A stretch of 64,000 nt of DNA from a virus: positions 11,724 through 75,723 of the IMG/VR virus record IMGVR_UViG_3300028563_000016. The stretch is one strand, 5' to 3'. A program made the position numbers and the translations under genes. The first letter of the stretch is position 1. Every line of letters begins with the position of its first letter. Of the stretch, positions 11,499-54,771 are shown one piece after another. The notes below the pieces were generated by a model that worked only from the letters and a program-made list of their open reading frames with translations, ran no database searches and had not been told where the DNA came from.

Positions 11499-11867
11499 TT
11501 AATTCTCCAACATTCTTCGTTGATGTTCAGCCAATAGCTTCTCACAAAACGGCGTTCCTTCAAACATTTCGGACAATGACACCACATCGCTGGCGCTAAT
11601 CTGATTTAGTTCAACATCGTTCGTCACTATTAAGTCAACGATCTTAGTGTCAGGTGTCAGTTGAACATTTTTGAATACCTCATTTACTACCCATTGTGCG
11701 CCTGCTACAGAAATTGACGTTGCATACACGCTGTCACGTAGGCACTCCATGAACACGTTTGCGATTAAGTCTCTAACTTCGTGCAGGTACTCAACGTCGA
11801 CTTCTTTGTTATAAAGCTCCGACAATTTCACCGAGAGAACGTTTTCAAATGTTTTTGCAAAAGTCAT
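11499..11867 (-). CDS. Hypothetical protein, paralog of 10581-10952
   Basis: ATGA overlap with upstream stop; ends EGTPFCEKLLAEHQRR. Confidence 0.65.
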   Translation of the reverse strand: MTFAKTFENVLSVKLSELYNKEVDVEYLHEVRDLIANVFMECLRDSVYATSISVAGAQWVVNEVFKNVQLTPDTKIVDLIVTNDVELNQISASDVVSLSEMFEGTPFCEKLLAEHQRRMLEN

Positions 11868-27967: not shown

Positions 27968-28435
27968 ATGTCAAATGGAATGAAACATTTGGTGAAATGT
28001 AGGTGTACATTACCTCAATTCAAAAAGGCGTTTTCACCACCAAATCACCAATTTATTGTATTTTCCGTAATAGACGATAGCGATAATGTAATTCCAAAAA
28101 TTGTTGTTTGTAACAATTGTGGCGTAGTTCACAAAGTGATTGATATCACAAAGTCAGTCATTGTCAACGGGAAAGAAAATATTACAACGCTTGTAACCGC
28201 AGAAGAAATTGCGTGTGGGTTACCTGAAAAGCTTGTTTCAGTTCTTGAAGCAAATAACGTTGACATTCCAACGTGGGAAGCTGTCAAATTTACATTTGAC
28301 AATAAACAGTGGGGTAACATGGTCGTGTTGACGGGTGAAACAATAGACGATGAGAGAACAGGAAAATTTATTGTTCTATTGAGCGAGACAGCTTTTCGCG
28401 TTGAAAACTTCACTCGTAAAGAGGTTGCACAATGA
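27968..28435 (+). CDS. Hypothetical zinc-binding protein
   Basis: KHLVKCRC...CNNCGVVH. Confidence 0.7.
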   Translation: MSNGMKHLVKCRCTLPQFKKAFSPPNHQFIVFSVIDDSDNVIPKIVVCNNCGVVHKVIDITKSVIVNGKENITTLVTAEEIACGLPEKLVSVLEANNVDIPTWEAVKFTFDNKQWGNMVVLTGETIDDERTGKFIVLLSETAFRVENFTRKEVAQ

Positions 28436-28686
28436 TGTACGGCAAACTTAGTTCTGAAAAGTTTTCAGAAGAAAATGAACAGTGTAGGGAAATTCTTGGT
28501 GAAATTGTTAATTTTGGTGTGTCTGATAGACAAAAACTTTTCATAATTTATTTGCTCGCTCTGGAATTAGAAGACGTAGAAAAGATGCAAAACATCGCAT
28601 CTTTTATGAAAGAATTTTATGGTAGCGAAATTTTTCTAACTGAACACTATGAAAGCGAGAACGAAAATGGGACGTCAAGCACTTGA
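28432..28686 (+). CDS. Hypothetical protein
   Basis: ATGA coupling; GAGG upstream. Confidence 0.65.
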   Translation: MMYGKLSSEKFSEENEQCREILGEIVNFGVSDRQKLFIIYLLALELEDVEKMQNIASFMKEFYGSEIFLTEHYESENENGTSST

Positions 28687-29266
28687 GTGTACAAAGAATG
28701 CAACAACAAATAGTTCAGCGCTTGAGAGCATGCTTGTGCAGTCTCAGTCTCCGGACATGCGTGTCATAACGTTATACGGAGACGTTAATGAACAATCAAT
28801 TTCTACTACAATAGAAAAATTAATTTGGCTTGACAGTCAAAGTCACAAAGACATTCACCTCATAACTTCAACGTATGGAGGTGTAATACATGATATGATG
28901 GCTTTGTATGACACGTGCATGTTACTGAAGTCTCATGGAACTCAAGTTTGTACGGTTGGAATTGGAAAGATCATGAGCGCAGGTGTGTTAATTTTGGCTT
29001 GTGGTGCAAAAGGAAAGCGTCTCATTGGACGCACTACAACCGTAATGATGCACGGTGCAAGTAGTGGTACTGTGGGAAACGTGTTTGAAATGGTGAATGA
29101 AGTCACCGAAGCAAAAAGGATTAATGATCTGATGGTTGAATTGTTAGTTGAAAATACAAAGATGTCAAAGTCATACATTGAAGACATGTTCAGTAAAAAA
29201 CTTGACAAGTACATTGATGCAGAAAAAACAATTGAACTAGGAATTGCTGATAAAATCATTGGGTAA
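28667..29266 (+). CDS. clpP: ClpP-family serine protease
   Basis: STYGG, GKIMSAG (Ser), GAKGKR, MMH (His), LDKYIDAEKTIELGIADKI. Confidence 0.9.
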   Translation: MGRQALECTKNATTNSSALESMLVQSQSPDMRVITLYGDVNEQSISTTIEKLIWLDSQSHKDIHLITSTYGGVIHDMMALYDTCMLLKSHGTQVCTVGIGKIMSAGVLILACGAKGKRLIGRTTTVMMHGASSGTVGNVFEMVNEVTEAKRINDLMVELLVENTKMSKSYIEDMFSKKLDKYIDAEKTIELGIADKIIG

Positions 29267-29283
29267 TGTGGTAAAATATTCTT

Positions 29284-30831
29284 GTGAATATAACAATTGA
29301 CGATTGGAAACAGCATTTTCCATATGACAACATTCGTCCTCAACAGGAGGATGCAATTAATTTTGTTCTTGATGCATTTTTGAACAAAAAAAAGAAATTT
29401 TGTGTGTTGGAATGTGCCGTTGGTGTAGGAAAGTCAGCAATTGGAATAACGGTTGCAAGATTTCTGCGTGCAAGTACACATTTGAAAGTTAATTATGCGC
29501 TTGGTTCATACGTTTTGAGCACGCAAAAAGTCTTGGTGTCACAGTATACACGAGACTTTGGACCCAAGAATAGAAATCTAATTAGAGAAATATCGTCCGC
29601 GAGCAATTTTACGTGTGCTCACAATCCTACACAAAAATGCAGTGAAAGCAAACGTATTTTAAAAGCTCTTAAAGAAAAGTTACAAGGGACTGAATTTTAC
29701 AATACGTGTAAAAATAGGTGTCCATATACACTTGCAAAACAAGATTTTTTAAATGCTGACATTGGTGTGACGAACTTTTCGTATTTTCTTGCAGAAACAA
29801 AGTATGCGCATCAACTTGAACCCAGATCGTTAGTCATCGTGGATGAATGTCATTCGCTCGAGAATGTTTTAAGCAGTTTTGTTGAAATAACGTTTTCTGA
29901 AAAGTTCGCTAAAGACGTGTTGAATTGTAAGTTTTCAAAACGTGCAGCAACACAAGAAGAAGTTTTTGATTGGGTGAAGAAAAATTATAAGCCTTCATTG
30001 AGTAGAAAAATCAAAGCGCTTGAAAAGCAAATTGAAATTGAAATTGCAGGTTCAGAAGATTTGACTGTTGAAACTGCAAATAGCAAACAATTTGAGATGC
30101 TTGATAAACACATATGTAAAATCAATCGTTTTATTGAGGCATATGAACCTGATAATTGGGTGATGAACGTAGTTGATGTGCAGGCGGGAGACAAAAAACT
30201 ACGTCGTTATGAATTCAAACCTGTTGATATATCACCGTTTTGTGAAGACTATTTGTACAAGTATGGCACTGATCACGTGTTGCTGATGTCAGCGACAATA
30301 ATGAACAAAGAAGCATATTGTCGATCAGTTGGAATCAAACCTGCTGATGCCGAATTCTACACCGCACCTTCACCGTTCCCGGTAGAAAATAGACAAATTC
30401 ACATAATTCCCGCGGGTAGCATGTCGTATCGTTGTATTGATAACACATTACCCATTCTTGCTGAAGCCGTAAAAATGTTATTAGAACGTCATAAAGACGT
30501 CAAAGGGATGATTCATTGTGTTGATAAAGATACGCTTGTGACAATGAGTAATGGATCATATAAAAAAATTGTAGACGTTAAACAAAATGATAATATTTTA
30601 ACATATAATGAAAATACTTCAAAATTTGAAAATCAATCCGTTATTGATGTTTGGGAAAATGGTATGAAAAATTGTATTGAAATTGAATTTAAAAATGGAA
30701 ATCGTGTTATATGCACACCTGAACATTTGTTTTTAACAAGAAATCGTTCTTGGGTACAAGCACAGTTTATAACTGAATATGATGACGTAATCATATTGAA
30801 ACGTCCCAATTGTGGGATAAACAACGTTTAA
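29284..30831 (+). CDS. DinG/XPD-family Fe-S helicase, N-terminal part plus split intein N-fragment
   Basis: RPQQ, GVGKS, four Cys (C..C..C..CPY), DECH, MSAT, SPF; residue 412 starts intein CVDKDTLV. Confidence 0.9.
   Translation: MNITIDDWKQHFPYDNIRPQQEDAINFVLDAFLNKKKKFCVLECAVGVGKSAIGITVARFLRASTHLKVNYALGSYVLSTQKVLVSQYTRDFGPKNRNLIREISSASNFTCAHNPTQKCSESKRILKALKEKLQGTEFYNTCKNRCPYTLAKQDFLNADIGVTNFSYFLAETKYAHQLEPRSLVIVDECHSLENVLSSFVEITFSEKFAKDVLNCKFSKRAATQEEVFDWVKKNYKPSLSRKIKALEKQIEIEIAGSEDLTVETANSKQFEMLDKHICKINRFIEAYEPDNWVMNVVDVQAGDKKLRRYEFKPVDISPFCEDYLYKYGTDHVLLMSATIMNKEAYCRSVGIKPADAEFYTAPSPFPVENRQIHIIPAGSMSYRCIDNTLPILAEAVKMLLERHKDVKGMIHCVDKDTLVTMSNGSYKKIVDVKQNDNILTYNENTSKFENQSVIDVWENGMKNCIEIEFKNGNRVICTPEHLFLTRNRSWVQAQFITEYDDVIILKRPNCGINNV
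30517..30828 (+). mobile_element. Split intein, N-fragment (104 aa)
   Basis: Block A CVDKDTLVTMSNG; block B ICTPEHLFLT (TxxH); W..A..I...D. Confidence 0.9.
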
Positions 30832-30847
30832 ATGAACTTGGAATATT

Positions 30848-30949
30848 ATGAAAATTAAGTCAAAAAAATATGTCGGATTACGATTAGTTTACGATATGAC
30901 AGTTAATAAAAATCATAATTTCATTGCAAATGAAGTTGTAGTTCATAAT
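30848..30949 (+). mobile_element. Split intein, C-fragment (34 aa)
   Basis: MKIKSKKYVGLRLVYDMTVNKNHNFIANEVVVHN then Cys+1; blocks F and G. Confidence 0.92.
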
Positions 30950-31378
30950 TGTCAAACTTACAAAATTGCAACATTCATAAAAGATTATGTAAATTCTGAT
31001 AGAATTTTGTTACATAATTCTGAAAATCGTGATGCAGTGTTAAAACAACATATGAAATCAAATAAACCAACAATTTTATTGTCTCCTTCGATGGCTGAAG
31101 GAATAGATTTGTTTGACGACAATAGTAGATTTCAAATTCTTTGCAAAATTCCATATCCGTTTTTAAAAGACAAAGTGGTGTTAAAACGAATGGAAAAAGA
31201 CAAAGAATGGTATGCATATCAGACAGCAAAGACAATAGTACAATCTTTAGGAAGATCAGTTAGAAATGAAAAAGATTTTGCGGTGAGTTATATTCTTGAT
31301 AGTGATTGGAAGCGTTTTTACGCTCAAAATAAACATATGTTTCCCACTGATTTCGTGCAACTTCTCATTGCGGAGTGA
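30848..31378 (+). CDS. Split intein C-fragment plus DinG helicase C-terminal domain
   Basis: After HN/C: SPSMAEGIDL, KIPYP, QSLGRSVRNEKD, YILD. Confidence 0.9.
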   Translation: MKIKSKKYVGLRLVYDMTVNKNHNFIANEVVVHNCQTYKIATFIKDYVNSDRILLHNSENRDAVLKQHMKSNKPTILLSPSMAEGIDLFDDNSRFQILCKIPYPFLKDKVVLKRMEKDKEWYAYQTAKTIVQSLGRSVRNEKDFAVSYILDSDWKRFYAQNKHMFPTDFVQLLIAE

Positions 31379-31731
31379 TTATGCCAAGATTAAAACACAA
31401 AGTTTTAAAGTACGATCAAGTCGAAAATGATCCCGACAATGATGATCAGGTGAGCATCATGTCAATGTGGCGTGTCGTTGAAGACACCGTTGCTGCAATT
31501 CGTCTAGATGTTGCAAAATGTGCAAATGGAAGTATAGTTGCCGGCAGACGTTCACGAGTTGGGTTACGTAATATAAAGAACGTCGTTATGATACTCATAC
31601 GTGAGACAAACAAACGAAACAAACAATCAATTAATCGTCGTCGTAAATATCGCGAAGAGAACGGCATTCAGCCGATGAATAGGGTGAAGTATCTCAAAAA
31701 GAAGTCAAAGATTAATGAGGAAAATAATTAA
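31375..31731 (+). CDS. Basic histone-H1-like (Hc1-like) protein
   Basis: DVAKCANGSIVAGRRSRVGLRNIK resembles Hc1 K...GN..AG.R.R. Confidence 0.55.
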   Translation: MIMPRLKHKVLKYDQVENDPDNDDQVSIMSMWRVVEDTVAAIRLDVAKCANGSIVAGRRSRVGLRNIKNVVMILIRETNKRNKQSINRRRKYREENGIQPMNRVKYLKKKSKINEENN

Positions 31732-31734
31732 AAC

Positions 31735-32028
31735 ATGGCAAATTTACGCACCCATCGCGCAGTGTTGGCTGACATAATTGATTTACACCTTGATCCTACA
31801 AAACCACATACAATTGTTGGTAAAGATGGAAGATTAAAAATCTCGAATTTGTGGCATGATGAATTAGTTATCACGCCGACGATTTTTACTGACGAAACAG
31901 TCGAAGCTCCAGTTACTGACGAAACAGTCGAAGCTCCAGTTACTGACGAAACAGTCGAAGCTCCAGTTACTGACGAAACAGGCGTTGTCGTAGTTGGTCG
32001 TCGTAGAAACAAGAAGACTACGAAGTAA
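31735..32028 (+). CDS. Hypothetical protein with TDETVEAPV repeats
   Basis: GAGG upstream; acidic repeat then basic tail. Confidence 0.65.
   Translation: MANLRTHRAVLADIIDLHLDPTKPHTIVGKDGRLKISNLWHDELVITPTIFTDETVEAPVTDETVEAPVTDETVEAPVTDETGVVVVGRRRNKKTTK
31886..31981 (+). repeat. 27-nt perfect in-frame tandem repeat x3.5
   Basis: TTACTGACGAAACAGTCGAAGCTCCAG at 31886, 31913, 31940, partial 31967. Confidence 0.95.
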
Positions 32029-32245
32029 TAAATTTACAAATTTTATTAATAATTTCTTTTTCTTGCTGCCCCGTGCTGATGCGATTATTTCCTATCGCTT
32101 TTCCAATGTCGTGAAGAGTGTGTGGCCCGTTGTTGACGGCAAGTATCATACAATTGTAGTTTTCAGAGAAACTGCACCATTGTTTACATGATGTATTTTT
32201 GCAAGAGACATTATTTGTTGAACAGTTTGAATAACATGTTGTCAT
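32018..32245 (-). CDS. Small Cys-rich protein with sigma-region-4-like HTH
   Basis: C..C..C..C then GPHTLHDIGKAIG..R....QQEK. Confidence 0.55.
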   Translation of the reverse strand: MTTCYSNCSTNNVSCKNTSCKQWCSFSENYNCMILAVNNGPHTLHDIGKAIGNNRISTGQQEKEIINKICKFITS

Positions 32246-32306
32246 ATGGTATAGTTAAATAATAGGATAAGTTGTGCACCGGTACAACAAAGAAAGCAGG
32301 CTCAAC

Positions 32307-33635
32307 GTGGTGAAAACGTACGTTTTAGATACTAACGTTTTACTGAGCGATGCATATGCATTGTTTGCGTTTGAAGACAACAATGTGATCATTCCAATGA
32401 TAGTGTTGGAAGAACTTGATAAATTTAAGACACGTCAGGACGATGTTGGTAAAAATGCGCGCCTTGCAAACAGATTATTAGATGAACTTAGAGAAGTAGG
32501 ATCATTGGTTGATGGCGTGAAACTTCGTTGTGGTGGAACACTTCGAGTTATTTTAACAGATAATGAAATGTTGTGTTGTTTACCTGTTGAAATGCAACAA
32601 CATCCGACCGCAGACAATTCAATAATCGCATTAGCGCTTGCGTTTAAAGATTCGCACCACATGCTAACAATGGTATCAAAAGACATTAACATGCGCATCA
32701 AGTGTGATGTGTTACGAATTAGGTGTGAAGATTATAAACACCTGCGCGTCACGGACGCGGAAGACAAATTATATACAGGCGTAAAAGTTCAAGTCGTTCC
32801 AGATGATGTTGTACAAGCATTTTATGATGACAATTTCTTAGATTTGAGTGACTATTGTTCATTATACCCAAATCAGGCTGTTGTGCTTAAGAGCGAAGAT
32901 GAACAAAAAAAGACGATTAGATCTGTGCTTGCAAAGTGTAAACCAATTGCATCATCAAAAGACGTGATTGTTCCAATTGCAAAAATTGGTGATGTGTATG
33001 GTTTACGATCAAGAAATAAGGAACAAGCGTTAGCGTTAGACATGTTATTGGATAATGACGTAAAGCTTGTGACGTTAGCGGGCAGAGCCGGCTGTGGGAA
33101 AACGTTATTGGCGTTAGCAGCCGGATTACAACAATTAAAGAAAAAATATTCTAAAATTATTGTTACACGTCCAATTCAACCATTAGGAAAAGATATCGGA
33201 TTTTTACCGGGAACCATGGAAGAAAAAATGGCGCCGTGGATCGCCCCAATTAGGGACAATATCGGATATCTGATGAGTGCAAAAAATTCAAAAAATAATT
33301 TAATGCTCGACGCTATGTTGAAAAAGGGCGAAATTGAAATTGAAGCAATTACGTACATTCGTGGTAGATCAATTCCAAATGCGTTTATTATTGTAGACGA
33401 ATGTCAGAATATTACGTTACATGAGCTTAAAACAATTTTGACTCGCGTGGGTGAAGGATCAAAGGTAGTTTTGACTGGCGACGAAAGTCAAATCGATAAC
33501 GTGAACGTTGATATGTTTTCAAATGGTCTTACGCATGTCATTGAGAAGTTCAAGGATCAACAAATTGCTGCACATATTAAATTAATTAAAGGCGAAAGAT
33601 CGCAGCTTGCAAGCCTTAGCGCTGATATCTTATGA
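32307..33635 (+). CDS. phoH: PIN-domain PhoH-family ATPase
   Basis: YVLDTNVLL, VLEELD, SKDINMRIK; GRAGCGKT, GFLPG, IRGRS, VDECQN, TRVG, GDESQID. Confidence 0.93.
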   Translation: MVKTYVLDTNVLLSDAYALFAFEDNNVIIPMIVLEELDKFKTRQDDVGKNARLANRLLDELREVGSLVDGVKLRCGGTLRVILTDNEMLCCLPVEMQQHPTADNSIIALALAFKDSHHMLTMVSKDINMRIKCDVLRIRCEDYKHLRVTDAEDKLYTGVKVQVVPDDVVQAFYDDNFLDLSDYCSLYPNQAVVLKSEDEQKKTIRSVLAKCKPIASSKDVIVPIAKIGDVYGLRSRNKEQALALDMLLDNDVKLVTLAGRAGCGKTLLALAAGLQQLKKKYSKIIVTRPIQPLGKDIGFLPGTMEEKMAPWIAPIRDNIGYLMSAKNSKNNLMLDAMLKKGEIEIEAITYIRGRSIPNAFIIVDECQNITLHELKTILTRVGEGSKVVLTGDESQIDNVNVDMFSNGLTHVIEKFKDQQIAAHIKLIKGERSQLASLSADIL

Positions 33636-34522
33636 CAGTAATTAAAATTGAGAAAAAAGAAAAAACATGTGGTCGAAATATACGATTGATGTGTGATGAA
33701 TGTAAATGTGAATTTATAAAAACATATCAAAAGGTTCAAATAGAAAAAGTGTATCATTTTTGTTCACAAAAATGTCATTATAATGCACAAAAGGATGGTC
33801 ATATATTACAACTTGCGTTTTTAACAAAATATGGTGTTTCAAATAATTTTGCTAGGCAAGACGTTGTTGAAAAAATTAAAGAAACTACGTTTGCAAATTA
33901 TGGCGTTACGAACATATCGCAAGATGAAAATATAAAACGAAAAAAAGAAGAGACGTGTTTTAAACATCACGGAGTTTTATATCCTTCACAAGATCCAATT
34001 ATACTTACAAAACAACGTCAAACGTTTTTTGAAAATAATGGAGTGACAAATTGGCATGATCTTTGTGTTAAACGTGGAACAGTATTTCATGCATACGATC
34101 ATGAAAAAATACGAATAAAAGCATTAGAAACTCGCATTACAAATTCATCATTATTTACGTCAAAAGCAGAAAAAGAATTCATTGAACGTCTTGATATATT
34201 ATTTATTGATAACGTTCATTCAAAACGCGTCAAAATGTGGCCAATTGATTGTTATGTCACATCATGTGATGTTTATGTGCAACATGATGGTGAACATTGG
34301 CACGGATTACAACAAAAATCATTAAAATATGACAAAGTATGTGAACAAGTAAAACGTGATCGTATTCAAGATGAATATTTTACAATAATGAACATGAAGT
34401 TAGTTCGTATAGCAAGTTTAATAGCAAAAAAGATATCAAATGATGAACTACGTGATTTAATCGTGAATGCAAAAGTGGGTGTCACGTACGTTTACGGTGA
34501 CGCAAAAGTTCCCGTTTTGTAG
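33632..34522 (+). CDS. Vsr/DUF559-like homing endonuclease
   Basis: CDEC/FCSQKC; KYGV repeats; SKAE, IDCY, HDGEHWHG, RDRIQD, LVRI. Confidence 0.75.
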   Translation: MTVIKIEKKEKTCGRNIRLMCDECKCEFIKTYQKVQIEKVYHFCSQKCHYNAQKDGHILQLAFLTKYGVSNNFARQDVVEKIKETTFANYGVTNISQDENIKRKKEETCFKHHGVLYPSQDPIILTKQRQTFFENNGVTNWHDLCVKRGTVFHAYDHEKIRIKALETRITNSSLFTSKAEKEFIERLDILFIDNVHSKRVKMWPIDCYVTSCDVYVQHDGEHWHGLQQKSLKYDKVCEQVKRDRIQDEYFTIMNMKLVRIASLIAKKISNDELRDLIVNAKVGVTYVYGDAKVPVL

Positions 34523-54682: not shown

Positions 54683-54771
54683 GGAAAGCTAACTTGGCAC
54701 AGGAGCCATGCCTTGATTGCTAATCAAGTGAGACCGCAAGGTTGGGCGTTCAACCCGTCAGTTTTCCGCCA
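54683..54771 (+). tRNA. tRNA-Ser(GCU), 89 nt, encoded CCA, apparent 8/4 acceptor/T-stem
   Basis: GGAAAGCT/AGTTTTCC-G-CCA; D arm CTTGGC/GCCATG; anticodon arm CTTGA-TTGCTAA-TCAAG; variable arm GACC-GCAA-GGTT; T arm GGCG-TTCAACC-CGTC. Confidence 0.88.

Follow-up and report, generated by a model that had tools for sequence, protein, structure and literature searches.

The DNA analysed here, called the window throughout, is a 64,000-nucleotide (nt) stretch of a viral record (IMG/VR IMGVR_UViG_3300028563_000016, positions 11,724 to 75,723). It carries an XPD/DinG-type helicase encoded by two adjacent, co-oriented genes, ORF1 and ORF2, whose facing ends encode the N-terminal half (IntN) and the C-terminal half (IntC) of an intein (Table). 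The best overall explanation, in which we have considerable confidence, is that the locus encodes a trans-spliced two-gene helicase descended from a fractured gene that carried a nuclease gene between its halves. The sequence, hidden Markov model (HMM) profiles, an intein-free ortholog and independent assemblies agree and support the identification of the element as a naturally split intein of class 1 whose host is an XPD/DinG-like phage helicase. Splicing itself we infer from sequence.

Table. Coordinates at the split-helicase locus of the window, followed by the intervening ORFs and gap classes of loci with an intein at the same site (aa, amino acids).
Feature	Position	Strand	Description
ORF1	29284-30831	+	515 aa; N-extein followed by IntN
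N-extein	29284-30516	+	411 aa; helicase domain 1 and arch region; ends ...KGMIH
N-intein (IntN)	30517-30828	+	104 aa; Cys1 is TGT at 30517-30519; block B CTPEH..T.NR.W
Nuclease-gene remnant	30792-30851	+	third frame; 19 codons, HIETSQLWDKQRLNELGIL, then TGA
ORF1 stop (TAA)	30829-30831	+	identical in the contigs of four runs
Spacer between half-genes	30832-30847	+	16 nt, within the deletion scar
ORF2	30848-31378	+	176 aa; reading frame differs from that of ORF1; IntC followed by C-extein
C-intein (IntC)	30848-30949	+	34 aa, MKIKSKKYVG...; block F VYDMTV, block G VVVHN; ATG at 30848
C-extein	30950-31378	+	142 aa and stop; starts with Cys+1 (CQTYK...); helicase domain 2
Nuclease ORFs in relatives	L004 464-1288; L016 2235-2969; L065 7866-8681; L129 4852-5583		
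Gap of 600-855 nt			~14 loci: L004/L043/L119, L016/L082, L065/L123, L081, L083, L084, L085, L092, L093, L100, L109, L115, L120, L129
Intermediate gap			L087 (139 nt), L097 (269 nt)
Gap of <=72 nt or overlap			window (16 nt), L071/L099/L101/L126 (47 nt), L105 (52 nt), L106 (72 nt), L114, L127, L130

The sequence hallmarks of a class-1 intein were present at the locus: Cys1, the block B Thr-x-x-His, the block F Asp, the block G His-Asn and Cys+1. A first-pass annotation of the window had placed the ends of both ORFs, Cys1, the TPEH block, the TAA that closes ORF1, a TGA in the ORF2 frame (30833-30835, upstream of the ORF2 ATG), the 34-aa IntC and Cys+1, and every one of these positions was borne out to the base. 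The junction between IntC and the C-extein reads ...GTAGTTCATAAT TGT, with Cys+1 at 30950-30952. Its reading of the two gene ends as intein halves was upheld by three profiles, each of which scored above its curated cut-off: Pfam Intein_splicing (PF14890) matched ORF1 residues 419-503 (44.3 bits vs. a cut-off of 35.8), TIGR01445 intein_Nterm matched ORF1 (43.8 bits vs. 24.5), and TIGR01443 intein_Cterm matched ORF2 residues 14-35 (28.3 bits vs. 15.6). The intein is divided at the canonical point, with the N-terminal lobe (blocks A-B/N4) in IntN and blocks F-G in IntC.

The inserted element occupies 30517-30949 (433 nt). Its excision in silico, by joining 29284-30516 to 30950-31378, produced a 553-codon helicase with the junction ...KGMIH-CQTYK.... 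The nearest protein, P0001, is intein-free, exactly 553 aa long and 94% identical over the N-extein. In a blastn comparison with its locus, L078 (~84% nucleotide identity), collinearity was interrupted at window 30509/30950, and the spliced 553-aa product aligned with the 553-aa protein of L078 without a gap and with 39 amino-acid differences. The insertion is precise relative to this intein-free homolog, and the earlier claim that splicing would restore a 553-aa helicase with all its motifs agrees with the gapless alignment.

The stretch is present in six rhizosphere-metagenome runs from six studies, and no RNA data set was listed for it. We aligned contigs of four runs from four studies (Logan) over the locus; one of these runs may be the source sample of the record itself. 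The contigs of two runs (X1 and X2) cover 30252-31327 with zero differences, that of a third (X3) covers 30429-31376 and differs solely beyond 31335, and that of the fourth (X4) covers 30655-30999. The first-pass annotation had singled out 30820-30860 as the region where read support mattered. No insertions or deletions were found across this region in the contigs of the four runs, all of which keep the stop and the frame change. A single frameshift cannot join the halves, as had been argued earlier, because each frame carries a stop in the gap (30829-30831 and 30833-30835).

The host protein contains Walker A (GVGKS), motif II DECH, SPSM.EGID and motif VI QSLGRSVR. Four cysteines, C111, C119, C142 and C146, are invariant in alignment A1 and stand where the Fe-S ligands of helicase domain 1 are expected, forming a putative Fe-S type (4Fe-4S) cluster site. 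The remainder of ORF1 matches DEAD_2 (33 bits) and ResIII, and the remainder of ORF2 matches Helicase_C_2 (68 bits). PDB matches of the helicase included FANCJ (9ej9) and XPD (2vl7, 4a15 and 8ebt), as well as Rad3 and CHL1 structures. The splice junction stands just ahead of the segment aligned with Pfam Helicase_C_2 (beginning at position 21 of the profile), and it would fall at the opening strand of helicase domain 2. The protein shares with the superfamily 2 (SF2) Fe-S helicases XPD, Rad3, FANCJ and DinG the DEAD_2 and Helicase_C_2 domains, the four Cys between Walker A and motif II, and a motif VI of the form QxxGRxxR; it differs from them as a short, 553-aa phage form with DECH as motif II. 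The earlier designation 'DinG/XPD helicase' is correct as to the family, but the protein is not a DinG ortholog: its NCBIfam equivalog scores for bacterial DinG and YoaA are far too low (38 bits vs. a cut-off of 789, and 32 vs. 598). Homologs sit on contigs of 240-357 kb, and the virus is therefore probably a jumbo phage.

Motif II, at window 29842-29853, reads VDECH instead of DEAH. Of the 119 homologs scored, 70 have DECH, which makes it the majority form in this phage clade; on that account, the idea that DECH marks the place of a former motif-II intein was discarded. One homolog, P0015 (901 aa), carries in addition to a split IntN a second large intein exactly between the DE and the CH of this motif, with that Cys serving as its +1 residue.

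The window intein has relatives at the same site. Among the best 120 homologs of the helicase, 15 are N-halves that end in IntN (494-524 aa) and ~100 are intein-free; the same 120 include P0015 and a contiguous 688-aa protein, P0005, with a mini-intein at this site. We scanned viral and metagenome contigs with a pattern for the IntC-extein junction and sorted the loci by the gap, measured between the stop of IntN and the start of IntC. About 25 metagenomic loci have a split intein homologous to that of the window at the same position of the helicase, with gaps that range from overlap to 855 nt (Table); in eight loci besides the window the gap is <=72 nt. The pattern matches L079, L080, L086, L088-L091 and others were discarded as chance. 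In alignments of 18 IntN (A2) and 18 IntC (A3) sequences, the invariant residues were C1, G49, C66, T67, H70, T74, N76, R77, W79, A82 and D89 of IntN, and M1, V14, D16, H23, N24, H33, N34 and Cys+1 (C35) of IntC; all are kept in the window. The family-conserved core of IntN ends near residue 93 (DDVII). Identity to the nearest retrieved relatives was <=45% for IntN and <=65% for IntC. The earlier suggestion of a possibly new pair holds for its sequence, which is distinct; the pair is not an isolated case, being one of ~25 split inteins at this site.

Most of these loci have a gene for a predicted nuclease between the intein halves. Their long gaps contain an ORF on the same strand, 240-294 aa in length (183 aa in L109), that often overlaps the IntC start. 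It was present in L004, L016, L065, L081-L085, L092, L093, L109, L119, L120, L123 and L129. One type of this ORF gave endonuclease and resolvase matches in PHROG and a weak match to Pfam Phage_endo_I; the L016-type ORF gave no direct match. An hhalign comparison showed the two types to be homologous (probability 99.5%, E = 2e-22), and the profile of the family matched T7 endonuclease I structures (PDB 1m0d, E = 9e-11). Four invariant Cys occur in the N-terminal part, which suggests a zinc finger. The intervening ORF is thus predicted to encode a zinc finger and a T7 endonuclease I-like nuclease, a class absent from those reported for fractured genes in 2009. The window itself contains a 296-aa ORF at 33632-34519 (+), downstream of a PIN-PhoH gene, that matches PHROG homing-endonuclease families (phrog_3339, E = 6e-14), so the phage carries free-standing endonuclease genes elsewhere.

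No such gene stands between the halves in the window, where we found a 16-nt spacer and a 19-codon remnant in place of the free-standing endonuclease gene that is a feature of fractured genes. The length and place of the spacer had been given correctly in the first-pass annotation, but the spacer is not original; it is the leftover of a deleted endonuclease gene. The translation of the third frame, HIETSQLWDKQRLNELGIL, matched the nuclease C-termini of L129, L085 and L082 at 12/19, 10/19 and 9/19 residues, respectively. The best of 300 shuffled controls reached 8, and a blastx search with the scar gave E = 2.5e-4. A fragment of the 3' end of the nuclease ORF is retained in every short-gap locus, and three pairs of loci (L093/L106, L120/L114 and L092/L127) are near-identical apart from a segment of ~765-845 nt that holds the nuclease ORF. 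The TGA that ends the scar (30849-30851) overlaps the ORF2 ATG as ATGA, and the same geometry is seen in L016. The nuclease-less state of the window is therefore derived. The IntN tail ...KRPNCGINNV is the ORF1 frame continuing into the nuclease remnant.

We then compared substitution rates, with omega as the ratio of non-synonymous to synonymous divergence. In comparison with L078, the N-extein had an omega of 0.047 and the C-extein one of 0.059, with a synonymous divergence (dS) of ~0.9-1.1. For the intein halves omega was 0.18 between the nuclease-less lineages L101 and L105, and 0.09 in two pairs that differ by the nuclease. By these values, the exteins and the nuclease-less inteins of related lineages are under purifying selection. 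In the 80 codons to each side of the insertion, regions that were picked after the extein alignment to L078 had been inspected, divergence from L078 was higher than elsewhere in the gene at both synonymous (0.65 vs. 0.47, p = 0.004) and non-synonymous sites (0.080 vs. 0.030, p = 1e-4). The raised divergence of the flanks is suggestive of a co-conversion tract, left by intein gain or loss through recombination with a diverged allele.

On these data we propose the following mechanism. ORF1 and ORF2 would be transcribed together, presumably with translational coupling, and yield N-extein-IntN and IntC-C-extein, respectively; promoter and terminator scans of 28400-32300 gave nothing above shuffled sequence, and no terminator-like site was found between the two genes. 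The mildly acidic IntN and the basic IntC (computed net charges of -2 and +4) would associate to form one HINT fold. Cys1 would then undergo the N-S acyl shift, Cys+1 would carry out the trans-thioesterification and Asn34 of IntC would cyclise, so that the exteins are ligated as ...KGMIH-CQTYK... into the 553-aa enzyme. The ancestor would have been a fractured gene with a free-standing gene for the zinc finger and T7 endonuclease I-like nuclease between its halves, and an internal deletion of ~700 nt would have removed this gene, leaving its last 19 codons abutting the ORF2 start.

Several observations weigh against this proposal. IntN residues ~94-104 (...KRPNCGINNV) form an 11-residue tail foreign to the family, and the window IntN has NRSW where most relatives have NRGW (the S also occurs in L085). 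Omega of the window intein against its nearest relatives was 0.16-0.37, values that are saturated and weakly informative. No clear Shine-Dalgarno sequence precedes ORF2, nor is one found before most genes of this phage. The absence of a second helicase copy from the 75.7-kb record speaks for the proposal, but the record is estimated to be 22% complete, so that a second, intact helicase could lie elsewhere in the genome.

Two of these points, the tail unlike that of every relative and the fragmentary record, in which a replacement helicase need not be included, would suit a decaying gene, in which the deletion of the nuclease also crippled the intein, for example by altering the C-terminus of IntN, and left the halves non-functional. 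We consider this improbable. Both exteins have an omega of ~0.05 over a dS of ~1, all invariant intein residues are retained, and samples from four studies share an identical sequence. The nuclease-less architecture also persists under purifying selection in several other lineages, and IntN tails of 98-108 aa are found in relatives that keep the nuclease as well. Fractured genes without an intein, whose products form an active two-part enzyme, do exist, such as Aeh1 NrdA (cited in PMC2677866); by analogy, the two products could be subunits held together non-covalently, with the intein halves acting as a dimerisation module without splicing. We regard this as very improbable, since the family shows no variation at Cys1, at the Thr and His of block B, at the Asp of block F, at the final His-Asn or at Cys+1, which would not be expected of dispensable chemistry; moreover, the junction falls within a conserved strand of helicase domain 2, and ~138 additional residues would have to be accommodated there. 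That the split is an assembly or sequencing error in a contiguous mini-intein, such as the one known at this site in P0005, can be practically dismissed in view of the two stops, the concordant contigs of four runs without an indel, the family-invariant Met that opens IntC and the recognisable nuclease-gene remnant in the spacer. The trans-spliced helicase therefore remains our preferred reading.

Among inteins of known structure, the closest was NrdJ-1 (8ubs, E = 2.6e-5), followed by Spl DnaX and gp41-1, and the pattern CTPDH..T.NRG.V....LT..DE is common to NrdJ-1 and the window intein. By sequence, the window intein can be assigned to the NrdJ-1/gp41-type class of fractured genes. Dassa and colleagues described such genes in 2009 for gp41 helicase, IMPDH, DnaE, NrdA, NrdJ, DNA ligase and terminase, with intervening GIY-YIG or Vsr-like endonuclease genes and one locus, gp41-7, without an endonuclease (PMC2677866). 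The window locus resembles those of gp41-1, gp41-8, NrdJ-1, IMPDH-1 and NrdA-2 (PMC2677866) in its phage origin, its host in DNA metabolism, its class-1 Cys/Cys intein, its split at the endonuclease insertion point, an IntN of ~90-105 aa, an IntC of ~35-40 aa and halves adjacent on one strand; the free-standing nuclease between the halves has its counterpart in the relatives of the window locus. It differs in that its helicase host and insertion site are not among the enzyme types named there, and in that the nuclease of its relatives is of the zinc finger and T7 endonuclease I-like kind, not GIY-YIG or Vsr-like, with the 19-codon remnant kept in the window.

Two other groups of split inteins were compared. 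The Npu and Ssp DnaE inteins are likewise naturally split, with Cys1 and Cys+1, an IntN of ~100 aa and an IntC of ~35 aa; they too lack an endonuclease, and their host, put together by trans-splicing, is an essential enzyme acting on DNA. However, their halves lie at distant cellular loci, whereas those of the window are 16 nt apart in a phage, and the similarity is marginal (1zd7, E = 0.65). The split PolB inteins, MIJ3 with an HNH gene (PMC6892783) and Aes123, CP21 and LCGC14 (PMC12707363), also reside in replication genes of jumbo or T4-like phages, with or without an endonuclease gene, but have another host protein, Ser-type (cysteine-less) catalytic residues and a separate intein lineage.

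The back-translated block-B pattern CTP[DE]H...T.NR.W matched 75 IMG/VR loci. For the most part, the ORF with the motif ends 26-34 residues beyond it, and such ORFs are split N-inteins in various host genes. Where a pattern located the IntC partner, it lay 675-870 nt downstream of IntN. Dozens of them (in L003-L077) are N-inteins in other hosts, for example in ~370-aa ORFs ending ...VTGDTKIQIK.../...EEDELVY; for many, no IntC partner was found within the locus by the IntC pattern. Related N-inteins with 32-41% identity also occur in GenBank phages (H27-H51): in NrdA of Campylobacter phages, annotated as 'intein' in one and as 'gene has been disrupted' in another, in a UvsW-type helicase (Salmonella S16-like phages and Proteus phage PM2), in a RecA-like gene (Yersinia phage TG1) and in Lak megaphages.

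A blastn search against GenBank phages gave nothing relevant. A tblastn search with IntN and ORF2 found related IntN solely in hosts other than this helicase, and IntC at this helicase site in no GenBank phage record. The two apparent full-length matches of ORF2 in PhiW-14 and phiA8-29 proved to be ordinary, uninterrupted helicases and were set aside. In the literature covered by our search, no helicase of the DinG, Rad3 or XPD type was described as carrying a split intein. What is new is therefore the host protein; the kind of element is known, including a fractured locus without a nuclease.

The split helicase is flanked by genes for a ClpP-like head-maturation protease and a PIN-PhoH protein (28649-29266 and 32274-33635; phrog_94, phrog_2765), and the gene order around the helicase is the same in L078. 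The sole tRNA found in the window by ARAGORN is a tRNA-Ser(GCU) at 54687-54771 (+).

Taken more broadly, the site may present a still-polymorphic series of split-intein genesis and endonuclease loss, comprising the empty site, the contiguous mini-intein, the fractured gene with a nuclease of a class unreported in such genes, and repeated, independent deletions that always keep the 3' end of the nuclease gene, possibly as a signal that couples the translation of IntC; the pair in the window would then be an active orthogonal tool. We put this forward tentatively, as a possibility that falls a little short of even chances. Split inteins are workhorse tools, and orthogonal pairs with a short IntC, such as the 34-aa one here, are useful for protein ligation. 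The zinc-finger nuclease related to T7 endonuclease I is, in addition, a candidate class of homing endonuclease. The scar and the near-identical pairs of relatives in which the nuclease gene is the sole difference jointly provide direct sequence evidence for the route formulated in 2009 in which an endonuclease invades and is then lost. For the jumbo phage itself, the split locus would mean that a helicase apparently central to replication or repair has been made dependent on post-translational assembly.

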